DNA from: Bacillota bacterium
Lineage (GTDB): Bacteria; Bacillota; Dethiobacteria; DTU022
Direction of reading: 5' to 3'
Assembly: GCA_034189085.1 (NCBI GenBank)
Contig: JAXHVH010000004.1
Location: 21,821-85,820 of the forward strand
DNA length: 64,000 nucleotides
A program made the translations under genes and the position numbers. Below, piece after piece: positions 22,150 through 43,065 of this stretch. How positions within the stretch are numbered: the stretch's first letter is position 1; each line of letters starts with the position of its first letter. The notes beneath the pieces were generated by a model, which was given only the letters and a program-made list of their open reading frames with translations, searched no databases and was not told the DNA's origin.

Positions 22150-23397
22150 TTAAGAAAACCGGGTGGCGCCGGCAAGGCGCCGGCGAAGCCTCCCTGAGCG
22201 GTGTTCCAGAGCGGGAATACTTAGTTCACTGGATCCCGGGGAGGCAGATGGGTATTTTTTCAAAAGGCCAATCGCTTCTTCGGTGAGTGAGAGAGCAGCA
22301 CTGTAATCTCGCTGCCGGTGTTCGAAATACTTGGCCAGCTCGACATGAAACGTCGGGTTGGCTGTTTTATTATCGATAGCCATCTGCCAGATAGAAACTG
22401 CTTTTTCCCATTGGCAGCGGCGTTTGTAGAAAAGAGCCAGTTCGATGGCTGCTTCTTCGGCGAGAGGCGGGGTCCCGTTTACCGACGCTCTACGCAGGTA
22501 AGAAAGGCCTTCTTTAATTCGGCCGGCATTAATACAGAGTCGCCCCAGGGCCAGCTCTTCCGCAGGATGCTCAACCATCTCTCCAGTGGCCAGCAGGGAA
22601 ACCCGTTTCAGAAGAGTGACCATTGACAGGATATCCAGGACATTATGATGAAAAACTTTACGCATTTTTTCGGTATTGCCGTGGCGGAGGTATTCGAAAT
22701 AAACGGCGGGGATTTCTGATCCGGGAATATCGTCGAAACGTTTGATACCCAGTAGGGCTTCTTCCAGTGCTTTCAGGGAGCGGGAGGGAAGGCGCTTTTT
22801 CCAGAGAGAGCGGGCGCACTGCAGGAGATCAAGGTGCCTGGGTGGCACGGTATGTCTGAGACCGGCCAGGATCTGGCGGGTCTGGATCAGCGGGAGGTCA
22901 AAGATTTTACCGTTAAAAGTGATCATTGCCGGGAAACGTTCAGCTTCCGTGCTGAAGTGACTGAGAATGGCTCTTTCTTCGGCTGGCCTGCGCAGAAAAT
23001 ACTGGCGCAGTTTAAAAGAATTCCCTTCCAGCCAGCCCAGGCCGATCAGGAAGGCCCATGTCCCTGTTCCCCCGGATAATCCGGTGGTTTCGATATCCAG
23101 GAATAGAGATTCCCGAGGGTTAAAATCAGCCAGGCTGTCGTCGTGAGCGGATAAGGCCAGGCCTGTTCCGCAGCAGGAATCAATGCCGGACAGCCTGTTC
23201 CACCCGTGCTGATAAGTGAGCGGATAAAGCAGTTCCCGCATGTAACAACGGCCGAAAGCGGTTTCTTCTTCATGGCCTTCTTCCGGAAAGAGTCGATCTT
23301 TAAAGCCAGACTTCGGTTTTTCAGCATACTGACGCCCTGTTTGGATTTCCCCTGTGCGCCGCAAATCACTCAGTTTTGCCTTTAAATCCTGTTTCAT
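22150..23397 (-). CDS. mrfB: RNase H-like 3'-5' exonuclease with C-terminal TPR region (MrfB/YprB family)
   Basis: 415 aa. LFLDIETTGL is the DEDD/RNase-H-like exonuclease motif I. The C-terminus is TPR-like. The gene is immediately downstream of, and overlapping, the YprA-like helicase gene. Confidence 0.6.
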   Translation of the reverse strand: MKQDLKAKLSDLRRTGEIQTGRQYAEKPKSGFKDRLFPEEGHEEETAFGRCYMRELLYPLTYQHGWNRLSGIDSCCGTGLALSAHDDSLADFNPRESLFLDIETTGLSGGTGTWAFLIGLGWLEGNSFKLRQYFLRRPAEERAILSHFSTEAERFPAMITFNGKIFDLPLIQTRQILAGLRHTVPPRHLDLLQCARSLWKKRLPSRSLKALEEALLGIKRFDDIPGSEIPAVYFEYLRHGNTEKMRKVFHHNVLDILSMVTLLKRVSLLATGEMVEHPAEELALGRLCINAGRIKEGLSYLRRASVNGTPPLAEEAAIELALFYKRRCQWEKAVSIWQMAIDNKTANPTFHVELAKYFEHRQRDYSAALSLTEEAIGLLKKYPSASPGSSELSIPALEHRSGRLRRRLAGATRFS

Positions 23398-25655
23398 TTC
23401 AGGATCACCTCGATCAGCTGCATAACAGTTTGTTTCCCGCCCTCGGAGCCCTGGTTAAGAGGCCCGATGCAGGACGGACAGCCGTCGGAGCACGGGCAGT
23501 CAACTATTACTCTGCGAGCTGCCTCGAAGATGTCGCGATAAATGCGGAAGATCTCCTGGCTGTAACCTACGCCGCCGGGGAAATTGTCGTAAAGATAGAG
23601 GGTCGGCAGTTCCGTGTGGGGTGCTTTTACCTGGCTTACCGCCCGCAGATCGCGAGGATCGCCCATCAGGAAGAGGGAAGCTACCTGTGGGACAAGATTG
23701 GCCAACCCGATCAGTCCGGACTGAATAGCGGCTGGAGACATTCCACCAAGAGCGGCCTGTTTGAAAGAGAGCCAGAAAGCTGTAGTGTGCATCTCTGTTT
23801 CCGGTAGATTCACAGGCCCGGCTCCCAGGTTCTCGTGGGTATTGAAACGTATTTTTTTAAACATCGAGACGAGAGCATTGATACGTACTTCACCCCAGGC
23901 CCTGTTCACTTCTGCCCCTGCACTGGCACAGGCATCAAGGACCTTCAAATCGACAGCCAGATTGGCGTCGGTGAAGTAATTAACTTCTACTTTTTTTACA
24001 TACGCCTTTTTTTCGGCAAAATCGAGTTTTTCCACCTGGTACTGCCGGCCGCCGTGCATGTAAATTGCTTCTTCGTGTACGAGCATAGGTGCACTGAAAC
24101 GATCCACTTCGCCGATTACCTGCGGCTGCGGTCCGGTGATATCGATTATAACCACATTTTCCCTGGTGGCGCTGCGCAGGCTGATTTCTTCGGCGGGGTA
24201 AGTGTCTTCCATCCAGTGGTAGCGGCCGTCACTGTGGTAAAGAACGTCTTCCTCTTCCAGGAACTGCAGCACTCCTTCAATTTCAGCCCTCCCGAAATGT
24301 TCGCCCTCCCTGAAGGGCAGTTCAAAGGCAGCGCACCGGACGTGGTTGGTAAGGATAATCAGGTTGTCGGGATCAGCCAGCGCTCTTTCCGGGCTTCGAT
24401 CAAAGAAATAATCGGGATTGGAGACGATGTACTGGTTTAGCGGTTCACTGTTAGCTACCAGCATAGCCAGAGAAATGCCGCTGCGCCGTCCGGAACGGCC
24501 TGCCTGCTGCCAGGTGCTGGCGATACTGCCTGGATAACCGGTCATAATGCAGGCATCGAGGGCGCCGATGTCAATGCCCAGTTCAAGGGCATTGGTGCTA
24601 ACAACTCCTTTAATCCTGCCACGGCGCAAACCTTCTTCAATGGCCCTTCTTTCTCGCGGCAGGTAACCACCGCGGTAACCGCGAATTGTGCTGTCCTCAC
24701 CGGGTCTGATCTTGCGGTTTTGACGCAGGTATGTGAGCAGGACTTCTACTCCCAGACGGCTGCGGGTAAAAACAATTGTTTGGACACCTGCACTGATCAA
24801 ATCGGCTGCCAGCTGGCGGACTTCCAGCAAGGCGCTACGTCTCAATCCCAGCTCTGGATTGATCAAGGGAGGGTTATAAAAAATGAAATGTTTTTCTGCC
24901 TGTGGGGCGCCGTTTTCGGCAATTACAGCAGGTTGTTCCTCGATTAGCAGTTCTGCCAGTTCGCCGGGATTGGCGATTGTCGCCGAGCAAAGGATGAAAA
25001 CGGGGCTGGAACCGTAAAAAGCGCAGATTCTTTTGAGGCGGCGTATCACGTTGGCTACATGGCTGCCGAAGACTCCCCTGTACTGGTGCATTTCATCAAT
25101 GACTATATACTTGAGGTTCTGAAAGAGCTGAATCCATTTGGTGTGATGGGGCAGGATGGCCGAATGGAGCATATCCGGATTGGTGACAACAATGTGCCCG
25201 CTGCGGCGGATGCTCCGCCGCAATCCGGGTTCAGTGTCGCCGTCATAAGTATGGCAGTTCAGATCTGGCTCCAATTTTCCGGTAAGCTCCCTCAGTTCGG
25301 CAACCTGGTCCTGGGAGAGCGCTTTGGTTGGAAAAAGATAAAGAGCTCTGCTGGAAGGATCTTTAGTCAGGGCACTGACTACGGGTAGGTTATAGCAGAG
25401 TGTTTTACCCGAGGCTGTGGGGGTAACTACTACTGTATGTTTGCCTCTTTCAATTGTTTCAATAGCTGCTGCCTGGTGGCTGTAAAGCTTTTCGATTCCC
25501 CGCTTTCTTAGCGCTTCGGCAAGCTGTGGTTCCAGCCGGGGCGGAAAATCGCGGTAAGTCCCTTCAGATGCACGAACTGTTTCCCAGCGGGTGACATTGC
25601 TTAAAAATGAAGGATCTTCTCTCCATTTTTGGAGTATTTCATTTATATCAGTCAT
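23394..25655 (-). CDS. mrfA: DEAD/DEAH-box helicase with C-terminal DUF1998/MZB 4-Cys domain (MrfA/YprA family)
   Basis: 753 aa. Motif I TPTASGKT, DEMH box, and C-terminal CPCSDGCPSC are all present. Confidence 0.7.
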   Translation of the reverse strand: MTDINEILQKWREDPSFLSNVTRWETVRASEGTYRDFPPRLEPQLAEALRKRGIEKLYSHQAAAIETIERGKHTVVVTPTASGKTLCYNLPVVSALTKDPSSRALYLFPTKALSQDQVAELRELTGKLEPDLNCHTYDGDTEPGLRRSIRRSGHIVVTNPDMLHSAILPHHTKWIQLFQNLKYIVIDEMHQYRGVFGSHVANVIRRLKRICAFYGSSPVFILCSATIANPGELAELLIEEQPAVIAENGAPQAEKHFIFYNPPLINPELGLRRSALLEVRQLAADLISAGVQTIVFTRSRLGVEVLLTYLRQNRKIRPGEDSTIRGYRGGYLPRERRAIEEGLRRGRIKGVVSTNALELGIDIGALDACIMTGYPGSIASTWQQAGRSGRRSGISLAMLVANSEPLNQYIVSNPDYFFDRSPERALADPDNLIILTNHVRCAAFELPFREGEHFGRAEIEGVLQFLEEEDVLYHSDGRYHWMEDTYPAEEISLRSATRENVVIIDITGPQPQVIGEVDRFSAPMLVHEEAIYMHGGRQYQVEKLDFAEKKAYVKKVEVNYFTDANLAVDLKVLDACASAGAEVNRAWGEVRINALVSMFKKIRFNTHENLGAGPVNLPETEMHTTAFWLSFKQAALGGMSPAAIQSGLIGLANLVPQVASLFLMGDPRDLRAVSQVKAPHTELPTLYLYDNFPGGVGYSQEIFRIYRDIFEAARRVIVDCPCSDGCPSCIGPLNQGSEGGKQTVMQLIEVILK

Positions 25656-25951
25656 CAGGATTCTCCCAACTTAAACATAAGTTTGTCTTAATCCGATTAT
25701 TCGCCGTCCGGCCGGGATTTCCTGTTGTCAATTCTATGCCTGTTTCTGGTAAAAAGGAGGTCTCTGTATTTTTGAAAAGCCTGTCCCGGTAAAGGAAATA
25801 ATCGGTCTTATGGCGAATATGGACACTGTCCGGTGAGGCTTTGACTGCTTTAGAGAAAAAGAAGAAAAGATGGTTGTTTGCAGGCGAATATTTCGGAATA
25901 ACAGACAAGCTTTATTGGCGGAGTTGTCCAAAAACAGAGGAGGTAGTGGTT

Positions 25952-26989
25952 ATGCGAAAGGGATGTCCCTACGGCACTCATCGGGTTATTGAACCCGCAG
26001 GCTTGCTGCCCCAGCCAGCCTGGAAAATCGACAATGACATGGAGATTTATGACAACGAAGTATTAATTGATGTGGAAGTGTTGAATATTGACTCAGCCAG
26101 CTTTACCCAGATTGAAAAGGAGGCAGGCGGTGAGGAAGAGAAAGTTAAAGAGATAATAACTGGCATAGTAAAGGAACGTGGGAAACATCATAACCCGGTA
26201 ACCGGTTCGGGGGGGATGCTCATCGGGCGAGTGGAAAAGATTGGCCCAGCCTGGAAAGGGAAGGTTCCCCTGCAGGAGGGAGACAGGCTGGCTACCCTGG
26301 TTTCCCTTTCGCTTACTCCTCTGCGTATTGATGGAATTAAAAAGATTCACAAGGATATTGACCAGGTGGAAATTGACGGCAAAGCAATTCTCTTTGAAAG
26401 CGGCATTTTTGCCGTCCTGCCTGAAGATCTGCCGGAAACCCTTTCCCTGGCGGTTCTGGACGTGGCCGGTGCAGCTGCCCAGACAGCTAAACTGGTTCGG
26501 CCAGGTGACAGGGTAGTGGTGATCGGAGCCGGTGGAAAGTCTGGATTGCTCTGTTTGCATGAGGCCAGGAAAAGAGCGGGTATTACAGGGAAGGTAATCG
26601 GGATTGCACCGAGAGAAAAAAGTAAAAAACGGGCTGAATCAACCGGCTACTGTGATGTGGTGCTCATGGCTGATGCTTCTAATGCACTGGATGTGATGAA
26701 CCAGGTCAAAGAAGTGACCGGTGGGGACATGGCCGACGTAACTATAAACTGTGTAAATATACCGAATACGGAACTTTCTTCTATCCTGGCCACACGCGAC
26801 TGTGGAACGGTTTATTTCTTCAGCATGGCTACCAGTTTCACCGCCGCTGCCCTGGGAGCCGAAGGGGTGGGCAAAGATGTAACTATGATTATTGGCAACG
26901 GTTATACGCGAGATCATGCGGCGATTTCTCTCAATATCATGAGAGAAAGCCCCGTCCTGCGGAATATATTCGAAGAACTATATACCTGA
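25952..26989 (+). CDS. kdd: L-erythro-3,5-diaminohexanoate dehydrogenase-like
   Basis: 345 aa from the ATG at 25952 (GAGGAGG upstream). The N-terminus MRKGCPYGTHRVIEPAGLLPQPAWKI and the Rossmann motif VVVIGAGGKSG are Kdd-like. Genomic context is kal/kce. Confidence 0.55.
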   Translation: MRKGCPYGTHRVIEPAGLLPQPAWKIDNDMEIYDNEVLIDVEVLNIDSASFTQIEKEAGGEEEKVKEIITGIVKERGKHHNPVTGSGGMLIGRVEKIGPAWKGKVPLQEGDRLATLVSLSLTPLRIDGIKKIHKDIDQVEIDGKAILFESGIFAVLPEDLPETLSLAVLDVAGAAAQTAKLVRPGDRVVVIGAGGKSGLLCLHEARKRAGITGKVIGIAPREKSKKRAESTGYCDVVLMADASNALDVMNQVKEVTGGDMADVTINCVNIPNTELSSILATRDCGTVYFFSMATSFTAAALGAEGVGKDVTMIIGNGYTRDHAAISLNIMRESPVLRNIFEELYT

Positions 26990-27014
26990 GCAACAGGGAA
27001 AGGATGATTTTAAG

Positions 27015-28265
27015 TTGGATCGTAAACCGAAATTAAACCTGGAAAAATCACTGGCTATGTTTGAAGAAGCACAGCGTATCTCACCCGGTGGGGTAATGGG
27101 TATCAGACGTCCCTATAATTTTGTGGAAGGAGAATACCCCATCTTTCTGACTCACGGCTATGGCGGTCACATTGTCGATGTGGACGGCAATGACTACATT
27201 GATATGCTTTGTGCCTACGGTCCGATTATCCTCGGCTATAACGAACCGGAGATAAACCGGGCGGTTAAGGAACAGATGGATAAGGGGTTCTGTTTTTCGC
27301 TGGTTCAACCGGTGCAGAATGAATTGATCAAGCGACTGATCAGAATCGTTCCTTCAGCAGAAATGGCCCTGCTGGTGAAAACCGGCTCGGATGCTACGGG
27401 GGTGGCAGTTCGTGTTGCCCGCGGTTATACCGGGAAAGATAAAATTTTACGCTGTGGTTATCATGGCTGGCATGACTGGTGTGTCGAGGTGGCTGGAGGA
27501 GTGCCGAAAGAAATCCAGGATTTGACCCTGGAATTTCCCTACGGTGATCTCGATGCTCTCGAAAAAATGTTGCAGGAAAACAAAGGTGAGGTAGCCGGAA
27601 TCATCATCACTCCCGTGGGACACCCCCTGGCCAAGCCAATTATTGCTCCTCCAGAGGGCTATCTGGCCGGTGTCAGAAAGCTGGCCGATCAATATGACTG
27701 TGTCCTGATCTTCGATGAAATTCGTACCGGTTTCCGAGTAGCCATGGGCGGAGCCCAGGAACGCTACGGCGTAATTCCCGATCTAACAGCTATCGGTAAG
27801 GCAATGGCCAACGGTTACTCAATCAGCGCCTGTGTGGGCAAGGTGGAAATTATGAAAACAGCCGAAAAGAAAGTTTTCATTAGTTCAACCTTTTTCCCCA
27901 ACAGCCTGGAGATGGTCGCAGCGATGAAGTGCCTGGATATATTGGAGCGGGAAAAGGTAATCGATGCCATATGGGAACGCGGCGAAGCATTTCTCGCTAA
28001 CCTGAAGAAGATTGTTGACCAAAGTGGGGTCCCGGCCACGGTATCCGGCATTCCGCCAATGCCTTTTCTCACCTTCGATAAAGTCGATAATATTTACCAG
28101 GAAAGAAGGACCCGTTTTTATACTGAAACTATCAGGCGAGGCCTCTTTATCCAACCTTACCATCACTGGTATATTGCCTACCGTCACACTGCGGAAGATT
28201 TACAGTACGCCCTTGACACAATTGAGGAAGCGTTAGCAATAGTATCCGGGGAATATCCGGCCTGA
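27015..28265 (+). CDS. Class-III (GSA-aminomutase-like) PLP aminotransferase; candidate 3-aminobutyryl-CoA aminotransferase (Kat-like)
   Basis: 416 aa. The family is GSA-aminomutase-like, with the Lys-containing region IGKAMANGYS. Its position is between kdd and kal. Confidence 0.55.
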   Translation: MDRKPKLNLEKSLAMFEEAQRISPGGVMGIRRPYNFVEGEYPIFLTHGYGGHIVDVDGNDYIDMLCAYGPIILGYNEPEINRAVKEQMDKGFCFSLVQPVQNELIKRLIRIVPSAEMALLVKTGSDATGVAVRVARGYTGKDKILRCGYHGWHDWCVEVAGGVPKEIQDLTLEFPYGDLDALEKMLQENKGEVAGIIITPVGHPLAKPIIAPPEGYLAGVRKLADQYDCVLIFDEIRTGFRVAMGGAQERYGVIPDLTAIGKAMANGYSISACVGKVEIMKTAEKKVFISSTFFPNSLEMVAAMKCLDILEREKVIDAIWERGEAFLANLKKIVDQSGVPATVSGIPPMPFLTFDKVDNIYQERRTRFYTETIRRGLFIQPYHHWYIAYRHTAEDLQYALDTIEEALAIVSGEYPA

Positions 28266-28327
28266 TGGGCGATTAATAATCGTCTAAAAAGGCTGTAAGA
28301 AAAATCTTCCGCTAAGGAGATGGGAAA

Positions 28328-28744
28328 ATGACCGAACCGAAAAAGCTGATGCTGCGCGTCCGCATAAGTGCCCATGATGTACACTATGGCGGCGGCCTCG
28401 TTGATGGAGCCCTGGTTATAAAGCTATTCGGCGATGTGGCGACAGAGCTGCTTATTCGTCATGACGGTGATGAAGGGCTGTTTGCCGCTTATGACATGAT
28501 TGAATTCAAAGCCCAGCTCTGTGCCGGTGATTTCCTTGAAATCTGGGGATGGATCGATCGTGTAGGCAGAACTTCGCGGCACATGCAGTTTGAAGCTTAT
28601 AAAGTTATTACCAATGCTGAAATGGATGACTGCCCGTCTGCCTGTAATATGCTTCCCGATCCTCTCCTGGTTGCCCGGGCCAGCGGGACCTGTGTGGTTC
28701 CCAGGCCCCTGCAGAGGGGACCGCAGGATCCTGATTTTGCGTGA
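28328..28744 (+). CDS. kal: Hot-dog fold protein, 3-aminobutyryl-CoA ammonia-lyase-like
   Basis: About 100-aa hot-dog core, roughly 130-aa protein size, and a position directly 5' of kce. The last ~40 aa (MDDCPSACNMLPDP...PQDPDFA) are low-complexity and atypical. Confidence 0.5.
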   Translation: MTEPKKLMLRVRISAHDVHYGGGLVDGALVIKLFGDVATELLIRHDGDEGLFAAYDMIEFKAQLCAGDFLEIWGWIDRVGRTSRHMQFEAYKVITNAEMDDCPSACNMLPDPLLVARASGTCVVPRPLQRGPQDPDFA

Positions 28745-28762
28745 GAAAGGGGATGAGAGATC

Positions 28763-29572
28763 ATGGACAAGTTGATTATTACAGCTGCTTTAACCGGAGC
28801 CGAGGTTACACGTGAGCATAATCAAAATCTGCCCATCACCCCGGAAGAAATAGCTGCAGAAGCATATCGTTGCTGTCAGGCCGGTGCTTCACTAATTCAC
28901 CTGCACGTGCGTAATGAAGACGAAACACCGACCCAGTCAAGAGAAGTTTATCAGGAAACAATCTCTTTAATAAAAGAAAAGTGTGGCCTAATTGTTCAGG
29001 TTTCCACCGGCGGAGCGGTGGGAATGAGCGCTGAAGAGCGCCTGCAGCCGATCTATCTTAAACCGGAAATGGCCACCCTTTCCACCGGGTCTGTCAACTT
29101 TGGTGACGATGTTTTTATCAATCCTCCCGCTTACCTGGAAAAGTTTGCCCGGGTGATGCAGGAGCACAATGTTAAACCGGAGATTGAAGTGTTTGAGGTT
29201 GGGATGATCAGCAATGCCTTGCAGCTGGCTAAAAAAGGGCTGCTTTCCGAGCCACTCCATTTTGATTTCGTGATGGGCGTGCCTGGTGGTATTCCCGCTT
29301 CGCTCAAAAATTTGCTTCACCTTGTGGAAAGTATTCCATCAGGGAGCACCTGGACTGTAGCCGGTATGGGGCGGCATGAACTGCCGCTGGGTACTGCGGC
29401 TATCATCCTTGGCGGTCATGTTAGGGTCGGTTTTGAGGACAATGTTTTTTATGAAAAAGGAGTTCTAGCTGAAAGCAATGCCCAGCTGGTTGAGCGGATT
29501 GCCCGGGTAGCCGCTATTCACAGCCGCCCTGTTGCTGAGCCTGATGAAGCGAGGCTAATTTTAGGTTTGTAG
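28763..29572 (+). CDS. kce: 3-keto-5-aminohexanoate cleavage enzyme (BKACE/DUF849 family)
   Basis: 269 aa. The N-terminus MDKLIITAALTGAE...HLHVR is typical of the DUF849 TIM-barrel. Confidence 0.7.
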   Translation: MDKLIITAALTGAEVTREHNQNLPITPEEIAAEAYRCCQAGASLIHLHVRNEDETPTQSREVYQETISLIKEKCGLIVQVSTGGAVGMSAEERLQPIYLKPEMATLSTGSVNFGDDVFINPPAYLEKFARVMQEHNVKPEIEVFEVGMISNALQLAKKGLLSEPLHFDFVMGVPGGIPASLKNLLHLVESIPSGSTWTVAGMGRHELPLGTAAIILGGHVRVGFEDNVFYEKGVLAESNAQLVERIARVAAIHSRPVAEPDEARLILGL

Positions 29573-29712
29573 TGTGCCAGGGAGACGGAGCATTTGGCAC
29601 GTTCATTCTGAGAAGATATAACACTTCGTCAGGAAGGCGAAAATCTGACACAGTGATTTTGCGAAAGCGTGCCCTGAGGATTGATTTCCGGCACGCTTAT
29701 TTCCTGAAAGAA

Positions 29713-30663
29713 TTATTTACCGGCCCGGGTTCCCGACAGGTGTCCCTGGCAGGTGCTGCGTTTTCTCAGTTCTTCCAGGGTCATGGCTGCGATTTGCCCC
29801 GGGCTTTCCGGCCATCCGGGGGCGATGAGCATTTCTTTTTCAGCAACCTGCCCGGCCAGGCGCTGGACTACAATATCCGGCGAAAGTCTCTCCAGGCAGT
29901 TGCAGAGCAGCGGAACATAAGCCTTTGCGTTTTCGAAGACTGCCACTTTTCCTTTTTCATATTCATTGGCCAGCGGTGTGTGCCTGATCACCTGCAGATG
30001 GTGAAATTTAACTCCATTTACTCGGCAGCGATTTAAGAAGGCAATCGTATCATACATCATCTCTTCAGTTTCACCGGGCAAGCCAAGGATAATGTGAGCA
30101 CAGGTATAAATGCCTCTGCCCATGGTCCTTAAAACAGCATCGGCAAATGCGGAGGCGTCATGACCGCGGTTGATCCTCTTAAGGGTGCTGTCATGGGCTG
30201 ACTGGAGCCCGTATTCGATCCAGAGGAGGTGAAGGCGGTGGGCATAGTCTTCCAGCAGGTCCAGGATCTCATCGGGGACACAGTCTGGCCGGGTGGCAAT
30301 ACTCAAGCCGATCACGTCTTTGTCCATCAGGGCCTGGTCGTAAATTTTTTTCAATTCTGCTGCCGGGGCATAAGTATTGGTGTAAGATTGGAAATAAGCA
30401 ATGTAGAAGGCTTTTTTTGATTTTTTTTTGCCGGCAGCCAGCTGTTCAGCAATAGACATTTTCTGTTTCTTTCCGCTGAAGGGGGCAAAAGAGGGATTGT
30501 AGCAGTAAGTGCATCCTCCGTTGCCAATGGTGCCGTCACGGTTGGGACAGGAAAAACCGGCATCAAGGGGAATCTTGTAGACGGGATGCCCGAACTTTTC
30601 CCTGAAAAAGCTGCTCAGGCGGTAATACCAGCCCGGCTCATCCCGGCGGGGAAGATTATTCAT
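29713..30663 (-). CDS. Radical SAM protein, TIGR01212 (YhcC-like) family
   Basis: [16 protein letters not shown] is the family-specific Cys motif. About 316 aa. Confidence 0.7.
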
Positions 30664-32596
30664 TGTTTTTACCTTCTTCCGCCCTTCCTTTTATAGCATT
30701 CAGGGCATCCGGCCGGTCAAGGTAAAGCAGGAGGACCGAGAGGTCAGCCGGCGATACCCCCTCCATGCGGCTGACCTGGCCGACAGTGGTGGGGCGCACT
30801 TCTTCCAATTTTTGGCGAGCTTCGCGGGAGAGATTGATTGCTTTTTTATAATCAAAATCGGGCGGGATTGGTTTGTCGTGCAGACGTTCCGTTTTGGCAA
30901 TCATCTGTTCCTGCTTGGCGATGTACCCGGCGTATTTGATCTGGTTTTCCAGCTCGTTTAACGTTCCAGGTGGCAGATCACTGGGAATTGTTTTCCCAAG
31001 CCACCGGCGGTATTCAAGGTAACTGATTTCCGGTCTCCTGATCAGTTCCAGGGCACTGAGCGGATGTTTTGGTGCTGCCGAACTATGGGCAGTCAAAAAT
31101 TCTTCCACGGGGCCACCCGGGTTATACCTGGTTTTCTCCAGGGCAGCCAGTTCAGTTTCGATGAAATCTTTTTTAACCTGATAAAGCCGGTAGTGTTCAT
31201 CGTCAACCAGGCCGATCTCCCTGCCTTTTTCAGTTAAGCGCAGATCGGCATTATCCTGACGCAGCAGGAGGCGGTGTTCCGCCCTTGAGGTGAACAGGCG
31301 GTAAGGTTCATTTACTCCTTTGGTGACGAGGTCGTCAATCAATACGCCAATATAGGCTTCACTTCTTTTTAGGACTAATGGTTCCTCATCCCTCAGGAGA
31401 TGAACGGCATTGATGCCGGCTATCAGGCCCTGGGCGGCTGCTTCTTCATAGCCGGTTGTTCCGTTAATTTGACCGGCAAGGAAAAGTCCGCTTACAGCCT
31501 TGGTCTCGAGGGAAATTTTCAGCTGAATCGGAGGAGCATAATCGTATTCGATAGCATATGCCGGGCGCATTATTTCAACCTTTTCGAGGCCTTTGATTGT
31601 TTGCAGAAAGGCCAGCTGAACATGCGGGGGCAGCCCTGTGGATATGCCCTGCAGGTAGAGCTCGTCTGTGTCGGCTCCTTCCGGTTCGATAAAGACAGGG
31701 TGTCGGTCATGGTCGGCAAAGCGGACGATTTTATCTTCGATTGACGGACAGTATCGGGGGCCGTGTCCCTTGATCAGTCCGCTGTAAATGGGCGCTACTG
31801 AAAAGTTGCTGCGGATTACTTCGTGAGTCTTGCTGTTGGTATAGGTCATCCAGCAGGGAATTTGTTCGGTCGGGACATTGCTGCCGAGCATTGAAAAACC
31901 GGGAGCTTCCGGTTCTCCAGGCACCAGGATCAGCTCTGAAAAGTCAATGCTGCGCCGGTAAACCCGCGGAGGGGTCCCTGTTTTAAAACGGTTCAGGGTG
32001 ATACCCAGACTTTGCAGGTTTTTGCCCAGGTTGAAAGATGGTGTAATGCTGCCGGGGGCAGCTGTGTAATGCAGGTCACCCAGAAAAATCTCTGCGGCCA
32101 TGTAAACCCCGGAGCAAACGATAGCTGTTCTGCAGGGATAACGGGCGCCGCTGCGGCCTATAACTTCTTCGATACAGCCGTTTTTCACGCTGATTTCTTC
32201 GGCCATGTCCTCGCGGATAGTCAGCAGCGGTTCTTTTTCCAGGGCCAGTCGCATGGTGCGCTGGTAATCCCATTTATCAATTTGAGCCCTCAGGGCCTGC
32301 ACTGCCGGTCCCTTACCGGTATTGAGCAGGCGGATCTGGAGCAGGTTCTGATCGGCAGCCCTGGCCATTTCCCCGCCCAGGGCATCAATTTCCCTTATCA
32401 GGTGGCCTTTGCCGGGTCCGCCCAGAGAGGGGTTGCAGGCCATGAAGGAAATCATGTCGAGGCTTAGATTTAAAAGTAAAGTTCGACAGCCCAGCCGGGC
32501 AGCAGCCAGTGCCGCTTCACAGCCTGCATGGCCGGCACCGATTACCACGACATCATAAATATCTTCAGAAACATTGTTTCCGCGGAGAATGTACAT
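30656..32596 (-). CDS. mnmG: tRNA uridine-5-carboxymethylaminomethyl modification enzyme MnmG (GidA)
   Basis: 646 aa. The N-terminus [23 protein letters not shown]...CNPSLGG...[13 protein letters not shown] is diagnostic. Confidence 0.85.
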
Positions 32597-32611
32597 TTTC
32601 CCATCTCCTGC

Positions 32612-34273
32612 CTAATATTCATAGCTGCGGGCAATGGGCATGCGCCTGCCGATGCCGAAAGCACGGGTGGTGATCCGCAGCCCCGGCGCTGCCTGACGCC
32701 TTTTAAATTCAGCCCGGTCAACCATGCGAATTACCCGTTCTACCGTTGACGGTTCGAACCCTTTACGGGTAATTGCAGTGGGGGAAAGATTGTCCTCAAT
32801 GTAATAGTGGAGGATTGGATCAAGAATATTGTAAGGAGGAAGTGAATCCTCGTCTTTTTGATGGGGGCGCAGCTCGGCCGAAGGGGGTTTGTTGATAATA
32901 TTCCGGGGAATGATCTCCTGCCCTTTCATTTGATTAAAATAATCGGCCAGTTCATAGACCATTATCTTGGGCAGGTCGGCAATGACCGCCAGCCCACCGG
33001 ACATATCACCGTAGAGAGTGCAGTAGCCGACAGCCAGTTCCGACTTGTTACCGGTAGCCAGGACCATGTAATGCTCCCGGTTGGAGATATGCATCAAAAT
33101 ATTGCCGCGGATCCGGGCCTGAAGGTTTTCTTCAGCCAGATCCATGTGAGCTTCTTCTTCCTGATTCAAAAGGCTCAGATATGCTTTAAAAGGTCCTTCA
33201 ATGGGCACTTTGCGGTAAGGAATACCCAGGTTCTCGGCCAGATCAACAGCATCTCTGACACTGTGATCGGAAGAGTACGGCGAGGGCATGAGGATACCAA
33301 GAACATTTTCCGGGCCCAGTGCTTCCCTGGCCAGAGCGGCAACCACTGCTGAATCAATACCGCCGCTTAGACCGAGAACAACCCTGGAAAAGCCGGTTTT
33401 TGTGACATAATCTTTAACGCCAAGACATAAAGTTTTAAAAACCTCCGCAATGTCGTCCTGCCCTGGAAGCTGCTTGATGTCGGCAGGTCGGAAAAGATCG
33501 TCGGTTTCCACGTAAAAAAGGTCTTCTTCATAAGATGCAGCTCTGTAAATTAATTCACCCCTGCTATTGTAAACAAGGCTGGAGCCATCGAAAACAAGTT
33601 CATCATTTCCCCCTACCTGGTTTAGGTAGATTATGCCAGCCCGGTATTTTCGGGCCAAAAAAGTCAGCAATTTTTCACGCAGGGCATGTTTTCCCAGGTG
33701 ATAGGGAGATGCGGACAGGTTGATAAGCATCCGGGCTCCCTGGGCAAATAATTTTTCCAGGGGGTCTGTATCGTATATTGGCTCGGAGAAAAAATCCCGA
33801 TCATTCCAGATATCTTCACAAATAGCAACAGCTGTAGGCTTTCCGGCCAGGGAGGCGATGTCCAGTTTGTCCGCGCGGGTAAAATATCTTTCCTCGTCGA
33901 AAACATCGTAATTGGGGAGAAGAGTTTTCTTATGGACCGATTTTATCATCCCCCTCTCCAGAACGAGCGCCGCATTGTAGAGCCGGCCATTTTCCCTGTG
34001 TGAAGTTCCTATCAGGATAGGTGGCCTGCCCTCTGCTGTCAGGGGAAGAAGTTCAGTGGTGATCAATTCTCGTTCTCTGTTGATGAAGCCGTTATAAAGC
34101 AAAAGGTCCTTGGGAGGATACCCGCTTAATGCCAGCTCAGTGAAGACAACCAGATCTGCCCCTTCTCCTTCGCCACGCCGGTAGCAAGTTTTTACTTTTT
34201 CCAGGTTTTTAGAAAGAGCTCCAATGGTCGGGTTAATTTGAGCCAGTGCGATTCGCAAATTTGTTCTCTCCAA
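32612..34273 (-). CDS. nadE: Glutamine-dependent NAD+ synthetase
   Basis: N-terminal CN-hydrolase domain (LRIALAQIN...) plus a C-terminal NAD synthetase PP-loop VVLGLSGGIDSAVVAALA. The called start is TTG. An alternative TTG at 34255 carries a GGAGAG RBS. Confidence 0.85.
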   Translation of the reverse strand: MERTNLRIALAQINPTIGALSKNLEKVKTCYRRGEGEGADLVVFTELALSGYPPKDLLLYNGFINRERELITTELLPLTAEGRPPILIGTSHRENGRLYNAALVLERGMIKSVHKKTLLPNYDVFDEERYFTRADKLDIASLAGKPTAVAICEDIWNDRDFFSEPIYDTDPLEKLFAQGARMLINLSASPYHLGKHALREKLLTFLARKYRAGIIYLNQVGGNDELVFDGSSLVYNSRGELIYRAASYEEDLFYVETDDLFRPADIKQLPGQDDIAEVFKTLCLGVKDYVTKTGFSRVVLGLSGGIDSAVVAALAREALGPENVLGILMPSPYSSDHSVRDAVDLAENLGIPYRKVPIEGPFKAYLSLLNQEEEAHMDLAEENLQARIRGNILMHISNREHYMVLATGNKSELAVGYCTLYGDMSGGLAVIADLPKIMVYELADYFNQMKGQEIIPRNIINKPPSAELRPHQKDEDSLPPYNILDPILHYYIEDNLSPTAITRKGFEPSTVERVIRMVDRAEFKRRQAAPGLRITTRAFGIGRRMPIARSYEY

Positions 34274-34275
34274 AC

Positions 34276-34314
34276 AAACCGCTCACGGGAAAGCGACTTT
34301 CCCGTGAGCGGTTT
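34276..34314. repeat. Perfect 17-bp inverted repeat (hairpin, 5-nt loop) abutting nadE start
   Basis: AAACCGCTCACGGGAAA gcgac TTTCCCGTGAGCGGTTT. No convincing U-tract on either strand. Confidence 0.8.
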
Positions 34315-34609
34315 CCCTTTATAAAATCTCAACTTTCCGTCTGCATTATAATAAAGGGAGGAAACAAAGTCAAGGTAGACATGGCCATCGATCATTTCCC
34401 CGGTAAGATTCCGCTACGAATGATCCGCCGCCCCATCGTTAATATTTTAAACAGGTTAATTAGATCAAGTTCATAATAAACATGAGCCTTGCAGAGTGCC
34501 GATGGCCGATGGTTATTGAAAATGAAGTTATCAAGGGAAGCGGTTATGATGGATTCGGTGGAGGTCTTTAAAAAGCGATAAGTATTGTTTTTTTGCAGGT
34601 TATTACCGT

Positions 34610-35968: not shown

Positions 35969-37492
35969 TTGAGCGAAAGAGGAGTAATTGTTCAGAAACC
36001 CTATGCTCGTTTAAGTCCTGAAGAGATTGAAACGATCGACAGGGCTTCCATGGCCATTTTAAAAAATCCCGGGATCCTCTGCTATCACGAGGAAAGTGTG
36101 TCACTTCTGGAAAAAGCCGGGGCTCAGGCCAGGGCTACCCGGGAAGGCGAGCATAATGCCTGGTGGGTAAGTATACCGGAGAATGTGATCAGGGAAGCGC
36201 TTGAATCGGTTCCATCCAGGGTTGTTCTCGGTGCTCGTGATCCGGAAAACAGGGTGGTCCTTGACGCTGAAGGATACAGGGTGCATTTTGGAACCGGATC
36301 GGAAACCAATTACTGGCTGGAAGTAAAACCGGAAACATTTCAGTCAAAAGTGGACAGCCATGAAAGGGTGTTCCCCTTAATGGAGAAAAAGAGGGGCAAT
36401 GTTGAATATCTGTGCCGCTCGGCCAATCTTGCCGAACAGCTTGAGAATCTTGATTTTTTTATCCGTAATGTTAATGTCCAGGACGATGATATAACTATCG
36501 ACAACAAAGACGTCAATGTGTTTTTTGCTTCCCTCGACCATATTACAAAGCCGGTAATTGGCGGAATAGCCGAGTTCGAAAGGCTGAATGATGTAGTCAG
36601 GATGGCGGAAATAATCGTTGGAGGAAAAGAGGAACTGGTCGAAAACCCGGTTGTTTCCTTCATTACCAGTGTTATTAAGAGCCCTCTCCAGGTGGTGGCT
36701 GAAACTGCCGAAAAGTTGATCGCCATAGCCAGGTTGAAACTACCAGTGGTAATTTCCACTTCACCCCAGGGGGGCTCTACAGCTCCCATCGACGACATGG
36801 GCATGGTTGCCCAGGTAAATGCGGAGGCCTTGGTCGGCATAACCATTAACCAGCTGGCCAACCCCGGTGCGCCCGTTATTTACGGCGCTGTACCGGTCAG
36901 GGCAAGGATGGATGATCTGAATGATATGTATGGAGTACCTGAATTTTGTCATTATAATATAGCCTGTGCCCAGATGGCCCGCCATTACAGGGTACCCTGT
37001 TATTCCACGGCTGGAGTTGGCGATGCCAGGGTCCCCGGTATTCAAGCGTCTGTAGAAAAAACCTTTACTCATACCGTGGTTCCCATGGCTGCACCGGGAC
37101 TGGTCCATTATTCCTTTGGCCTGCTGGATAAAACCCAGATTTTCTGTCCGGAACAGGCTTTGCTGGACAACCAGCAGATCGGGATGGCTAAATTTCTCTA
37201 CCGTGAAAGCGGGATCAATGATGAGAGAATTGAAAAAACCAGGGTAATGGTGGAAGAAGTAATGCATAGCCCCTACCGGATGTATGCCCGCTATGCTCGG
37301 AAAATGTTGAGGCGGGGTGAAATTTTCCCCGGGTTTCCCTTTGAAGGAGAAAGTGAAGACCAGGATCAAACTCTTCTGCTGGCCCATGAAAAATTTCAGG
37401 AGCTTGAAAAAAACGAACCCAGGCATTTGCCTCCTGAGGTAAGGGATAAAATATTTAAAGAAATACCGGGATTGCTGCCACGCCTGAAGTAA
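35969..37492 (+). CDS. MttB-superfamily non-pyrrolysine methyltransferase (quaternary amine:corrinoid methyltransferase candidate)
   Basis: 507 aa, no in-frame stop. Family motifs are present (GTGSE, PVVISTSPQGGSTAP, NAEALVGIT). TTG start with AAGGAGG upstream. A corrinoid protein gene lies 62 nt downstream. Confidence 0.8.
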   Translation: MSERGVIVQKPYARLSPEEIETIDRASMAILKNPGILCYHEESVSLLEKAGAQARATREGEHNAWWVSIPENVIREALESVPSRVVLGARDPENRVVLDAEGYRVHFGTGSETNYWLEVKPETFQSKVDSHERVFPLMEKKRGNVEYLCRSANLAEQLENLDFFIRNVNVQDDDITIDNKDVNVFFASLDHITKPVIGGIAEFERLNDVVRMAEIIVGGKEELVENPVVSFITSVIKSPLQVVAETAEKLIAIARLKLPVVISTSPQGGSTAPIDDMGMVAQVNAEALVGITINQLANPGAPVIYGAVPVRARMDDLNDMYGVPEFCHYNIACAQMARHYRVPCYSTAGVGDARVPGIQASVEKTFTHTVVPMAAPGLVHYSFGLLDKTQIFCPEQALLDNQQIGMAKFLYRESGINDERIEKTRVMVEEVMHSPYRMYARYARKMLRRGEIFPGFPFEGESEDQDQTLLLAHEKFQELEKNEPRHLPPEVRDKIFKEIPGLLPRLK

Positions 37493-37554: not shown

Positions 37555-38244
37555 TTGATGGAGGAAAATTTAATCGGGAGAATAGCCGAGAATGTTTTAC
37601 AGGGACGCCGCAACAGGGATGATGAAGGAATAGAGGAAGATTATACTGGAGAGCCGGGGGTTGCTGAACTGGTTAAAGAAGCGCTAAAGAGCGGTGTTCC
37701 CACTGATAAAATTTTGCTTGAAGGTCTGAGCGCCGGGATGGAGAAAGTTGGTCAAAAATATGAAACCGGCGAGTATTTCATTCCCGATATGCTGACGGCT
37801 GCTGAAGCGGTAGAAGCGGGCATGGCCATTATGGAGCCTCACCTGATCAAAGATGGAGTGAAAGAAGTAAAAGGTAAGGTGGTCATGGCTACGGTGGAGA
37901 AGGATCTTCATGATATAGGGAAGAATCTGGTTTCTATAATGCTGAAAGGGGCCGGATTTACGGTCGTTGATCTCGGAGTTGATGTCCCGGCCGATAGAAT
38001 TGTCGAAGTGGCAGAAGAAGAAGGAGCCGGCTTGATTGGTCTCTCAGCTCTTTTGAATACGACTATGACAGGTATGGGAAAAGTGATTGCCAGACTGGAG
38101 CAGAAGGAATTGCGTAAAAAAATTAAAGTTATGATCGGCGGGGCTCCTACTTCGGAAGATTATGCCCGTGAAATCGGGGCCGATGCTTATGGGAAAGATG
38201 CTTTTGCCGCCATCCGCGAGGCTGAAGCATTGCTTAAAAAGTAG
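37555..38244 (+). CDS. Corrinoid (cobalamin-binding) protein, MtgC/MttC-like
   Basis: N-terminal helical cap plus a B12-binding Rossmann domain with the DxHxxG motif (DLHDIGK). Confidence 0.8.
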   Translation: MMEENLIGRIAENVLQGRRNRDDEGIEEDYTGEPGVAELVKEALKSGVPTDKILLEGLSAGMEKVGQKYETGEYFIPDMLTAAEAVEAGMAIMEPHLIKDGVKEVKGKVVMATVEKDLHDIGKNLVSIMLKGAGFTVVDLGVDVPADRIVEVAEEEGAGLIGLSALLNTTMTGMGKVIARLEQKELRKKIKVMIGGAPTSEDYAREIGADAYGKDAFAAIREAEALLKK

Positions 38245-38736
38245 ATTCTTGAAATGACGGGAGAAGGCGTTTTTCAGCCTGAAGAGGATTTATTGGCCGT
38301 ATTTATGTCCTAAATGCTGATTACATGTAAATAACGTTCAATTTACGGTATTTTGCGAATTTACTGTTATAATTAATATTTGTGTCTCTACTCTGGTTAT
38401 GAAATAATAACTATAGTTTGCAGTTACAATTAAAAGAACATTTAAACTGAATATATGTAAAGCTGGTTGTACTGCCTGCACATTTCATTTTCATCAACGA
38501 ACACTTCAAAAAAAACTGTCGCCTGAAGTTTATCACATTTTGATCAGGATTAGTTTATCTTAATTTAATATTAACCAATTATTGACAAGGAGGGTGAGTG
38601 CTTATCAATGATCCAACCAGTGAGTAATGTTATTGATTTTGCCAGATCGCTTGGTGCAGAATTTTTATTCTCAAATGAAATTCAGATCCTCTCTATCTTC
38701 AGCAGGGTCGTTGTTTACCTGCAGAGGAGAGGCGAG

Positions 38737-39348
38737 ATGGTCTGGGAGTTGTTGCTGGAGCATCTGTGGCTGGTCATAATATCGGTTGTCATTGCTGTGG
38801 TCGTGTCCGTGGTTGTGGGTGTTCTAATAAGTTATTATTCCAACGCGGCCTTAACCGTATTGACTGTCTGTCAGATTTTGATGACCATTCCCAGCATGGC
38901 CATGCTGGGTTTTATGGTTCCCCTGTTTGGCATCGGTTTTACCACAGGAGTTGTTGCCTTGATTCTTTACAGCCTGTTGCCCATTGTGCGTAATACTTAT
39001 ACGGGAATTAAAGAAATCAGCCCGGCGGTGGTTGAATCGGCTATCGGCATGGGAATGACTGAATGGAGGATACTGACAAAGATTAAACTGCCCCTGGCCA
39101 GGCCGGTTATCATGGCCGGAATTCGAACCGCTACAGTTATGATCACCGGTATTGCCGCTATTGCCGCCTACGTTGGGGCAGGAGGTCTCGGTGAGCTGAT
39201 TTTCCAGGGGATTTCCCGTTCCAGTGAACCGATGATTATTGTCGGGGCTCTCGGGGTTTCCATTATTGCCCTGGCTTTTGATTTTATCCTGTCCTGGGGT
39301 GAACAGCGGCTGGCTGCAATTGGTAAAACCAGGGAGGTAGAAGGATGA
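38737..39348 (+). CDS. Glycine betaine/choline-type ABC transporter permease (OpuCB-like)
   Basis: ELLLEHLWLV...QTIPSMAMLGF parallels the OpuCB N-terminus. GAGGAGAGG lies upstream of the ATG at 38737. The ORF-track start at 38608 is an alternative. Confidence 0.75.
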   Translation: MVWELLLEHLWLVIISVVIAVVVSVVVGVLISYYSNAALTVLTVCQILMTIPSMAMLGFMVPLFGIGFTTGVVALILYSLLPIVRNTYTGIKEISPAVVESAIGMGMTEWRILTKIKLPLARPVIMAGIRTATVMITGIAAIAAYVGAGGLGELIFQGISRSSEPMIIVGALGVSIIALAFDFILSWGEQRLAAIGKTREVEG

Positions 39349-40457
39349 TAAAATTAGAAAACGTGACCAAAAAATTTCCCGGCATGTCGATCCCTGCCGT
39401 TAAAGACCTGAACCTTGAAGTTAAAGAGGGGGATGTCTGTATTCTGGTTGGGCCTTCAGGCTGCGGGAAAACGACGACCATGAAGATGATCAATCGTATT
39501 TATGAACCTACCAGCGGGGAGATCTATATCAACGGGCAGAACACCCTGGAGATGGATCCCATCAAGCTGCGTCTTGATATTGGCTATGTTATTCAGGAGA
39601 TTGGTCTCTTCCCTCACATGACAATTGCCGAAAATGTGGCCACGGTGCCAATGGAAAAGAAATGGCCGAAAGATAAAATCAATAAAAAGGTCGATGAAAT
39701 GATGACCCTTGTCGGGCTGAATCCGGAGGAACACAAAAATCGCTATCCTTCTGCTTTGAGCGGCGGTCAGCGTCAGAGGGTCGGTGTGGCCCGAGCAATG
39801 GCTTCCGATCCGCCAATCATGTTGATGGATGAGCCTTTCGGAGCTGTTGACCCTATTACCAGGGCCCGCCTGCAGAATGAGTTTTTGCGGATCCAGGAAA
39901 GAGTAGGTAAAACAATTGTTTTTGTCACCCACGATATTGATGAGGCGATCAAAATGGGTGATGCCATCGCTGTGATGAGGGAAGGGCAGCTGATTCAGCA
40001 TGCCACACCCAGTGATCTGTTGAGTGCTCCGGCCAATGAATTTGTCGAGAACCTGGTTGGTAGGAACAGGTCGATTAAGCGGCTGCACCTGATCCGCATT
40101 CGTGAAATACTGGATTCAGTTAACAGGATTGATCCGGCCACTGTTGATATGTCAGTTGACGATATCAAGAAACGGATAGATGAAAGCGATATCCGTTCGG
40201 TGATGGTCGTTGACCGCGACAACAAGCTTAAGGGCATTATCGGGGTCAACGATTTAAAGAAAAAAGCGGGAGAAGTGGCCTCTGACTACGTGCAGGATGT
40301 ATCTGATTCCATCACTGACGATGCTACCTTGAACGATGCACTCTCGGTGATGCTGGAGTGCGGTGAAGGTTATGTGGCCGTGGTAAACGAAGACGACCAG
40401 TACCAGGGAACAATCACCCTGGGTGACCTGCTCCATGTTGTAAAGGAGGATGATTAA
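39345..40457 (+). CDS. Glycine betaine/osmoprotectant ABC transporter ATP-binding protein with tandem C-terminal CBS domains (OpuCA/OpuAA-like)
   Basis: Walker A GPSGCGKTT, signature LSGGQRQR, Walker B IMLMDEP, and a C-terminal CBS pair. Confidence 0.85.
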   Translation: MIKLENVTKKFPGMSIPAVKDLNLEVKEGDVCILVGPSGCGKTTTMKMINRIYEPTSGEIYINGQNTLEMDPIKLRLDIGYVIQEIGLFPHMTIAENVATVPMEKKWPKDKINKKVDEMMTLVGLNPEEHKNRYPSALSGGQRQRVGVARAMASDPPIMLMDEPFGAVDPITRARLQNEFLRIQERVGKTIVFVTHDIDEAIKMGDAIAVMREGQLIQHATPSDLLSAPANEFVENLVGRNRSIKRLHLIRIREILDSVNRIDPATVDMSVDDIKKRIDESDIRSVMVVDRDNKLKGIIGVNDLKKKAGEVASDYVQDVSDSITDDATLNDALSVMLECGEGYVAVVNEDDQYQGTITLGDLLHVVKEDD

Positions 40458-41178
40458 CATGCTTCGCAAACTGTGGAAGTGGGTTATCATTCCTCTCCTG
40501 CTGATTGTCATCGGTGTGGTTATCGTTGTCTATGCAGTCAATAATCCAACCGATTCTCTGGTAGCCAGGGCCCTTACTTACAGCAATATATTCAAGGCGC
40601 TACGTGAGCATCTGGGATTAATGCTGGTGTCCATGTTCGGGGCAATAATTGTTGGTGTGCTGGCAGGTATTTTGCTTTCCCGCCCCAAGCTCTATTATAT
40701 CGGGCGCGGTGTGGAAAATGTGGTTAACGTGGGGCAGACCATTCCCAGCCTGGCTATCCTGGCTCTTTTCTTTACCATTCTGGGGTTGGGTTTCAGGGTT
40801 GCTGTTTTTGCCCTGTTTCTCTATTCTATTTTACCCATCCTGCGAAATACATTTGCCGGTCTTACCAGTGTTGACGCAAGTATTATTGAATCGGCCAGGG
40901 GTATGGGGTTGAGCCCACGGCGGGTTTTAACCCGCATCGAGCTACCCATTGCTTACCCCATTATCATAGCAGGCATTCGCACCGCAGTGGTCATCAATGT
41001 TGGTGCGGCCACCCTGGCTACTTTCATTGGGGGCGGCGGTTTCGGCGATTTAATTGTTACAGGCCTTGCCGTGCGTCGAGATATGGTTATATTTACAGGT
41101 GCCGGATTGGCTGCCTTGACGGCAATTATTCTCGACTATGTGGTTGGACAGGTAGAAGAACATCTTGTTAGGTGGTGA
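40450..41178 (+). CDS. Glycine betaine-type ABC transporter permease (OpuCD-like)
   Basis: Paralog of the 38737 permease (GQTIPSLAILALF...). Overlaps the ATPase stop. Confidence 0.8.
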   Translation: MINMLRKLWKWVIIPLLLIVIGVVIVVYAVNNPTDSLVARALTYSNIFKALREHLGLMLVSMFGAIIVGVLAGILLSRPKLYYIGRGVENVVNVGQTIPSLAILALFFTILGLGFRVAVFALFLYSILPILRNTFAGLTSVDASIIESARGMGLSPRRVLTRIELPIAYPIIIAGIRTAVVINVGAATLATFIGGGGFGDLIVTGLAVRRDMVIFTGAGLAALTAIILDYVVGQVEEHLVRW

Positions 41179-41254
41179 TAAGAAAAAAGAGTTTTACAAA
41201 TCTGGTTATGTTGGGGCTGTCAAAGAATTACAAAAAAAGGGGGATATTTTTTCT

Positions 41255-43015: not shown

Positions 43016-43065
43016 CCTGGATTTGCATTGCCAGTAATTTAAGTTTGTTCTGGAGGTATTCAATA

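Follow-up and report, generated by a model that had tools for sequence, protein, structure and literature searches.

We analyzed a stretch of 64,000 nucleotides of contig JAXHVH010000004.1 from a Dethiobacteria bacterium of the phylum Bacillota (hereafter the window) and found that it carries an operon in which members of two enzyme families of lysine fermentation, 3-aminobutyryl-coenzyme A (CoA) ammonia-lyase (Kal) and 3-aminobutyryl-CoA aminotransferase (Kat), are encoded side by side, together with Kdd and Kce. The four open reading frames (ORFs) lie in tandem on the plus strand at 25952-29572, separated by spacers of 25, 62 and 18 nucleotides in that order, and each is preceded by a Shine-Dalgarno-like purine-rich motif, with a GGAGG ribosome-binding site for kdd at 25939-25943. 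The ORFs and their matches to Pfam and NCBIfam models bear out the original prediction, made from the DNA letters alone, which had placed at this position a cluster in the order kdd, aminotransferase, kal and kce. The features are as follows:

25656-25951, no strand: upstream intergenic region of 296 nucleotides, between a divergent mrfA-like helicase gene and kdd
25952-26989, plus strand: kdd, L-erythro-3,5-diaminohexanoate dehydrogenase; 345 residues; NCBIfam NF052381 equivalog, Pfam ADH_zinc_N
27015-28265, plus strand: kat, 3-aminobutyryl-CoA aminotransferase family (class III); 416 residues, TTG start; Pfam Aminotran_3
28328-28744, plus strand: kal, ammonia-lyase acting on 3-aminobutyryl-CoA; NCBIfam NF052388 equivalog, Pfam 4HBT
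28763-29572, plus strand: kce; NCBIfam NF052387, Pfam BKACE

An independent public Logan assembly (SRR24907504, locus L102) is 99.99% identical to the window over positions 22380-34516, a segment of 12.1 kb that spans the cluster, and the gene order is therefore not an assembly artefact. Neither the region upstream of kdd nor the kat-kal spacer gave an Rfam family at gathering score, a sigma-70-like consensus promoter or a terminator; all that the spacer contains is a short hairpin, imperfect and lacking a T-tract.

Identity of the four gene products

The product of kdd scored 277.5 bits against the NCBIfam model Lys_ferment_KDD (NF052381), whose cut-off is 200. Its N-terminus, MRKGCPYGTHRVIEP, agrees with that of Kdd proteins from complete lysine-fermentation clusters, and the protein is 67% identical to Kdd of a Bacteroidetes Kat-type cluster (locus L041). 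Kal, a protein of the hot-dog fold family (Pfam 4HBT), scored 171.3 bits against Lys_ferment_KAL (NF052388, cut-off 160); its closest solved structure is that of a related enzyme, beta-alanyl-CoA ammonia-lyase (4MTU, 99.6 bits), and for homologues at 61-95% identity the sources give the name 3-aminobutyryl-CoA ammonia-lyase. Kce matched Lys_ferment_KCE (NF052387) with 437.7 bits against a cut-off of 382 and Pfam BKACE with 365 bits, and it is 57-65% identical to Kce of complete clusters.

Kce also aligned end to end with the solved Cloacimonas Kce structure 2Y7D (308 bits), with Glu14 and the HLH and R-x3-ED motifs in register; the two motifs provide Zn ligands and catalytic residues. Active-site typing of the BKACE protein, which the original prediction had put forward as a check, showed that Glu14 is retained and aligned with Glu14 of 2Y7D. 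This residue of Kce binds the 5-amino group of 3-keto-5-aminohexanoate, and a BKACE enzyme acting on 3,5-dioxohexanoate has Trp in its place (PMC10470551). Since Glu14 is kept in the window protein, a non-amino beta-keto substrate is disfavoured. On the basis of these alignments and model scores, both Kce and Kal look canonical.

The aminotransferase required a comparison with HemL (glutamate-1-semialdehyde aminomutase), as Kat was called "HemL-like" when it was first characterised (Perret et al. 2011, PMC3149608). The two validated Kat enzymes, CLOAM0809 and DIG1_60031, are about 65% identical to each other (PMC3149608). Metagenome loci retrieved with the published cloning primers of Perret et al. 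(2011, PMC3149608) served as the CLOAM0809-type reference; three of them encode a complete protein of 414 residues that starts with MAEKLKLA and ends with EVKKML, fitting both CLOAM0809 primers. The window aminotransferase is 59% identical to this reference over 408 residues (512 bits) and likewise 59% identical to Kat of L041, whose N-terminus, MSKKLKLD, fits the published primer for DIG1_60031. In contrast, solved HemL structures, which are its best matches in the PDB, reached only about 224 bits. Among NCBIfam models, those of GntE and HemL matched the window protein best, but each scored far under its own cut-off: the HemL equivalog TIGR00713 gave 284.3 bits against a cut-off of 527.3, and the remaining HemL models likewise fell below theirs. 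No Kat-specific model stood among the NCBIfam matches listed for this protein.

Alignment and phylogeny gave the same picture. Twelve residues that follow the YHG/YHGH motif in the HemL proteins 3BS8 and 6W80 are deleted in the window aminotransferase, and the deletion is common to CLOAM0809-type Kat, with no gap at this place in the alignment of the two; the deletion takes away part of a loop, the gating loop in glutamate-1-semialdehyde aminomutase structures. The pyridoxal phosphate (PLP) lysine (in GKAMANG) and the Asp of IFDEIRTGFR are conserved. In a neighbor-joining tree of 85 Kat-family and two HemL sequences, built without bootstrap, the window protein nests inside a monophyletic Kat family, and HemL forms a distant outgroup on a long branch. 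The window gene sits between kdd and kal-kce, in genomic linkage with kdd and kce, and Kat homologues that are 67-77% identical to it lie in complete kamA-kdd-kamD-kamE-kat-kce clusters (L015, L022-L024). The original prediction had held open that the aminotransferase might turn out by phylogeny to be a bona fide HemL; the tree, the model cut-offs, the loop and the identity to Kat all speak otherwise, and we conclude from these sequence comparisons that it is a member of the Kat family and not HemL. CLOAM0809 uses 2-oxoglutarate to transaminate 3-aminobutyryl-CoA and has no activity on free beta-amino acids (PMC3149608). At 59% identity to the characterised enzyme, the window Kat likely has the same specificity for 3-aminobutyryl-CoA.

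Homologues of the window aminotransferase are often named glutamate-1-semialdehyde aminomutase/aminotransferase, or simply aminotransferase, in public sources. Given these names and the lack of a Kat-specific model among the listed NCBIfam matches, the Kat family is commonly mis-annotated or unnamed.

Distribution of Kal and Kat and the states of one chromosomal slot

Perret et al. (2011, PMC3149608) describe Kal and Kat as alternatives. A Kat alignment was used to search a set of genomes with one representative of each GTDB species, and the 80 best loci were retained (L numbers denote loci throughout); their 10-kb flanks were annotated by phmmer with reference proteins from the window and the complete L041 cluster. 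At least one lysine-fermentation gene was present within 10 kb of the Kat homologue in 37 of the 80 loci, kdd together with kce in 26, and kdd, kce, kamD and kamE in 17; the loci with kdd and kce span Bacillota, Spirochaetota, Bacteroidota, Elusimicrobiota and others. By comparison, kal stood beside the Kat homologue in only two of the 80 loci, L013 and L014, the second from a Dethiobacter metagenome-assembled genome (MAG). This agrees, as does the account of Perret et al., with the premise of the original prediction that described pathways use Kal or Kat, not both. Context look-ups of close homologues yielded further loci with both genes (L011, L093, L102 and L105-L107), L102 being from the same organism as the window; this organism was reached by way of the Kal protein, an exact look-up of the window Kat protein having returned no record. 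All loci found with both genes fall in one Bacillota lineage, the members of which are named Dethiobacter sp. and Dethiobacteria by their sources. A literature search returned no description of a kdd-kat-kal-kce operon, and the two enzymes appeared together only in Perret et al. (2011) and in a paper on thaumarchaeal MAGs; no paper linking Dethiobacter to the aminomutases was found in that search.

The surveyed loci from Elusimicrobia showed a different peculiarity, a tandem duplication of kdd in otherwise complete Kat-type lysine clusters (L075:1550-3709, L085:932-3847, L090:1735-3921).

In all loci with both kal and kat and with enough flanking sequence, the cluster occupies the same slot, between a helicase gene and mnmL/mnmG-nadE. 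The boundary genes of the window, both outside the system, are as follows:

23394-25655, minus strand: mrfA-like DEAD/DEAH helicase; Pfam DEAD, Helicase_C, MZB; left boundary
29713-30663, minus strand: mnmL/ytqA, radical-SAM tRNA-modification gene, convergent; TIGR01212, 345 bits against a cut-off of 180; right boundary

The whole mnmL-mnmG-nadE block lies on the minus strand at 29713-34273, convergent to the operon. The helicase gene is also the left neighbour in L011, L012, L014, L092, L093, L096 and L098. The slot was found in the following states, in which sdh stands for an uncharacterised saccharopine-dehydrogenase-like gene:

kdd-kal-kce, Kal only: L096, L098
kdd-kat-kal-kce, both: window, L011, L013, L014
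kdd-sdh-kal-kce-kat, both: L093, L105-L107
kdd-sdh-kat-kce, Kat only: L012, L092 (the latter with kamA in front)

In the genomes that hold both genes, identity to the window protein is 76-84% for Kat and 72-85% for Kal, compared with 73-78% for MnmG, 68-70% for NadE and 61-69% for MnmL among the flanking proteins. Because the conservation of Kat and Kal equals or exceeds that of the flanking housekeeping proteins, both enzymes are under purifying selection and not decaying. In a midpoint-rooted tree of MrfA, MnmG and NadE, the Kal-only genomes are basal; contrary to this, the Kat-only genomes are basal in an outgroup-rooted tree of Kdd and Kce. As the two trees disagree, we make no claim as to whether Kal or Kat came first. 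A trace of kat insertion was sought by comparing the kat-kal spacer of the window with the kdd-kal spacers of Kal-only relatives, and these proved too diverged to align.

Two further genes are associated with the slot. A protein of about 365 residues with a C-terminal 2x[4Fe-4S] ferredoxin domain is encoded between the helicase gene and kdd in L011 (7808-8905) and L012 (6306-7406), and is absent from the window. The saccharopine-dehydrogenase-like gene (PF03435 and PF16653, about 383 residues, no NCBIfam cut-off passed) was found in L012:8758-9918, L092:8790-9941 and L093:7197-8348, and it also lies directly upstream of a Kat-like gene in 25 further loci, for example L054:8838-9980, L059:8769-9911 and L080:8838-9980. 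This tight pairing is seen in a large clade, mostly labelled Deltaproteobacteria, without lysine-fermentation genes nearby, and some lysine clusters of Dethiobacteria contain the gene as well. The pattern points to a second role, as yet undescribed, of Kat-like acyl-CoA transaminases.

A proposed fork at 3-aminobutyryl-CoA and its alternatives

We propose that the four genes form a lower lysine-fermentation operon with a fork at 3-aminobutyryl-CoA, for which both exits are encoded, and we consider this reading probable. The substrates are assigned by orthology, and the chemistry and stoichiometry of the two routes follow Perret et al. (2011, PMC3149608). Kdd would convert 3,5-diaminohexanoate, presumably supplied by KamA and KamDE from genes in another part of the genome, to 3-keto-5-aminohexanoate by oxidative deamination, with formation of NAD(P)H and ammonia, and Kce would condense this product with acetyl-CoA and split it, yielding acetoacetate along with 3-aminobutyryl-CoA. 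At the first exit, Kal would release ammonia to give crotonyl-CoA, the electron-accepting route to butyrate; at the second, Kat would react 3-aminobutyryl-CoA with 2-oxoglutarate to give acetoacetyl-CoA and glutamate, the oxidative all-acetate route. The Kat route would bring more substrate-level ATP and keep nitrogen as glutamate, and it would require an external sink for reducing equivalents. The bacterium is probably able to send the same intermediate down either route, and we infer that flux is divided between the exits so that redox and nitrogen stay in balance. The original prediction had offered the coexistence of both routes as one of two explanations. This one is favoured because Kdd, Kal and Kce pass their cut-offs, Glu14 of Kce is kept and the 67-77% identical Kat homologues sit in complete clusters.

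Several observations weigh against this proposal. With reference proteins from a validated Kat-type cluster, phmmer (E ≤ 1e-5) detected no KamA, KamD, KamE, AtoA, AtoD or thiolase in the 64 kb, and Pfam annotation of the remaining large ORFs revealed neither these nor a Bcd/Etf or glutamate dehydrogenase gene. Kal exceeds its equivalog cut-off by a narrow margin only (171 against 160 bits). A Kat homologue of 60% identity occurs in strain NaphS2, which has no lysine-fermentation genes (Perret et al. 2011, PMC3149608), and the large Deltaproteobacterial Kat-like clade has no such genes nearby. Finally, neither the Rfam search nor the promoter and terminator scans detected a regulatory element that would allow kal and kat to be controlled separately.

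The lack of the aminomutase genes deserves closer attention, as it had been stressed in the original prediction. That KamA and KamDE are missing from the window is confirmed by the phmmer search and by Pfam, which found no LAM_C or lysine-aminomutase domain in the 51 largest non-overlapping ORFs. The sole B12-binding protein of the window (37555-38244; B12-binding_2 and B12-binding) adjoins an MTTB gene and does not match KamE; from its domains and position it looks like a methyltransferase corrinoid protein. In the relatives of the lineage, too, kamA, kamD and kamE were not found in the 10-kb flanks, with the exception of kamA in L092. Since this holds for the Kal-only relatives as well, a separate lower-pathway module is the norm of the lineage, and the lack of kam genes beside the module is by itself no sign of novelty.

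It is nevertheless conceivable, if unlikely, that the module does not serve lysine at all, and acts on another beta-amino/beta-keto substrate or on 3,5-diaminohexanoate/3-aminobutyrate derivatives scavenged from the community by a genome without aminomutases. The scarcity of kam genes within 10 kb of the lineage clusters would fit this view. So would the database record of the single exception: KamA of L092 has no homologue above 72% identity among 5.8 billion proteins; for the lineage's Kat and Kal, by contrast, there are dozens of homologues with at least 80% identity. Characterised Kat, moreover, accepts several beta-aminoacyl thioesters (PMC3149608). On the other side, the scores of Kdd, Kal and Kce each exceed the cut-off of a function-specific equivalog model, the amino-binding Glu14 is present in Kce, and Kdd (67%) and Kce (57-65%) are close to their counterparts in complete clusters. 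Lysine-pathway genes are also dispersed in other fermenters, such as Cloacimonas (PMC3149608), and in one lineage member, L092, kamA lies within the operon. As a guide to the upper pathway, this kamA led to a dead end, its nearest homologue (72%) being found among amino-acid permease and glutamine-synthetase-like genes, an unrelated context. We think it no likelier that the lineage is without any lysine aminomutases and that its module is free-standing, living on 3,5-diaminohexanoate/beta-amino compounds from neighbours or working as a serial Kal-Kat shunt.

Another explanation is that the dual state has been caught during the replacement of one enzyme by the other and that one gene is functionally redundant and on its way to being lost. 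One slot does hold versions with Kal only (L096, L098), with both enzymes and with Kat only (L012, L092), as a replacement in progress would leave them. We judge this rather improbable, as kat and kal are both intact and conserved at least as well as the neighbouring housekeeping genes (61-78% identity), and as the dual state occurs in two gene orders, on many contigs and in many samples.

Kal and Kat could also work in series, as an amine-mediated shunt in which crotonyl-CoA and ammonia interconvert with 3-aminobutyryl-CoA, and this together with 2-oxoglutarate interconverts with acetoacetyl-CoA and glutamate. Such a shunt would connect the branches to butyrate and acetate with no need for crotonase or for 3-hydroxybutyryl-CoA dehydrogenase, and through it the redox metabolism of C4-acyl-CoA would be linked directly to the nitrogen pool of glutamate and 2-oxoglutarate. 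The two enzymes share one intermediate, their genes are adjacent and co-conserved, and the link from acetoacetyl-CoA to crotonyl-CoA was called "enigmatic" in a Kat-type organism that has neither Hbd nor Crt (Perret et al. 2011, PMC3149608). Yet Kat-only and Kal-only relatives manage with one enzyme, and in L095, a related locus from Bacillota, genes for thiolase, Hbd and crotonase lie upstream of the Kat homologue; we give both the shunt and its bridging of the two branches little credence.

That the aminotransferase is an ordinary HemL for tetrapyrrole synthesis, brought into the operon by chance, as the names given to many homologues and its best PDB matches might suggest, is virtually excluded by the 284 bits against a HemL cut-off of 527, by about 224 bits to solved HemLs against 512 to Kat, by the 12-residue deletion, by the outgroup position of HemL and by the finding of no haem-synthesis gene in the 64-kb window.

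Lysine fermentation is a main path by which protein is turned into butyrate and acetate in guts, digesters and sediments. In readings of metagenomes for butyrate production, the Kal and Kat routes have served as markers that exclude each other. An operon in which both are maintained by selection shows that the two exits for 3-aminobutyryl-CoA can be present in one organism. In principle, such an organism could alternate between a fermentation to acetate plus butyrate, which is self-balanced, and an all-acetate oxidation dependent on hydrogen or an acceptor, which would alter predicted product ratios and syntrophic dependencies. The slot with its Kal-only, Kal+Kat and Kat-only states offers a natural comparative system for the merits of each route.

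Other genes of the window and comparison with known systems

Three MTTB-superfamily methyltransferase genes, all of full length and without an in-frame stop, are present in the window at 2995-4437 (minus strand), 35969-37492 (plus) and 42991-44547 (plus). The corrinoid protein gene at 37555-38244 (plus) and an OpuA-type glycine-betaine ABC transporter at 38608-42274 (plus) accompany them, and from this gene content, demethylation of quaternary amines by the organism is probable. The pair of MTTB and corrinoid genes that lies downstream of the CDF transporter is syntenic in L013, L092 and L093. Rfam PYLIS_3 matches at 44026-44125 (plus) and 3372-3471 (minus) fall inside uninterrupted MTTB ORFs; we rejected them as a sign of pyrrolysine genes, since the host ORFs are of full length without an in-frame stop, and they probably reflect coding-sequence homology, not pyrrolysine decoding. 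Methyltransferase genes of the MTTB family also occur, together with kamA, beside Kat homologues 77-79% identical to that of the window in Zhaonella formicivorans (L008:3339-11254) and a Desulfitibacter MAG (L095:6366-11212). L008 adds atoDA, a dimethylamine methyltransferase gene and a corrinoid-protein gene, and both loci are without kdd and kce within 10 kb.

Elsewhere in the window, a cobalamin riboswitch (110 bits) at 6232-6407 (plus strand) lies upstream of a CobA/BtuR-type corrinoid adenosyltransferase gene at 6769-7302. At 56651-58485 (plus), a MobA-like nucleotidyltransferase gene is followed by a gene of the F420-0:gamma-glutamyl ligase family, in a Bacillota genome.

Four known systems or enzymes come closest to the operon and its products. 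HemL, like the window Kat, belongs to the fold-type I class-III PLP family and has the PLP lysine and Asp at the same positions, but the similarity ends at about 224 bits, HemL has the extra 12-residue loop, and the window protein fails all HemL models and has no haem-synthesis context. In thaumarchaeotal MAGs (bioRxiv 10.1101/2020.06.24.168906 / PMC8397731), putative kal and kat were annotated in one genome without kdd, kce and the rest of the pathway, whereas the window has both genes in one operon with kdd and kce. The canonical Kal-type cluster of Fusobacterium nucleatum and Acetoanaerobium sticklandii (Kreimeyer et al. 2007, as cited in PMC3149608) contains the same kdd, kce and kal families as the window. 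Unlike the window operon, it has no aminotransferase, and in F. nucleatum the aminomutase genes lie inside the lysine cluster (PMC3149608). The kdd-kal-kce trio of these canonical gene families stands alone in the same slot in the relatives L096 and L098.

The Kat-type cluster of Candidatus Cloacimonas acidaminovorans (CLOAM0809) and Bacteroidetes (DIG1_60031; PMC3149608) encodes the same Kat family, with the same loop deletion and with Kdd and Kce as partners. In the published Kat-type clusters, however, kat replaces kal, which is absent from the genome, whereas the window keeps kal beside kat. The window cluster also differs in containing no aminomutase, CoA-transferase or thiolase genes; the gene order of the Bacteroidetes-type L041 is atoD-kat-kce-kdd-kamA-HP-mutS-kamD-kamE-atoA-thl. 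We conclude that an operon with both exits is a real, modest addition to the known lysine-fermentation clusters and not a new kind of system.

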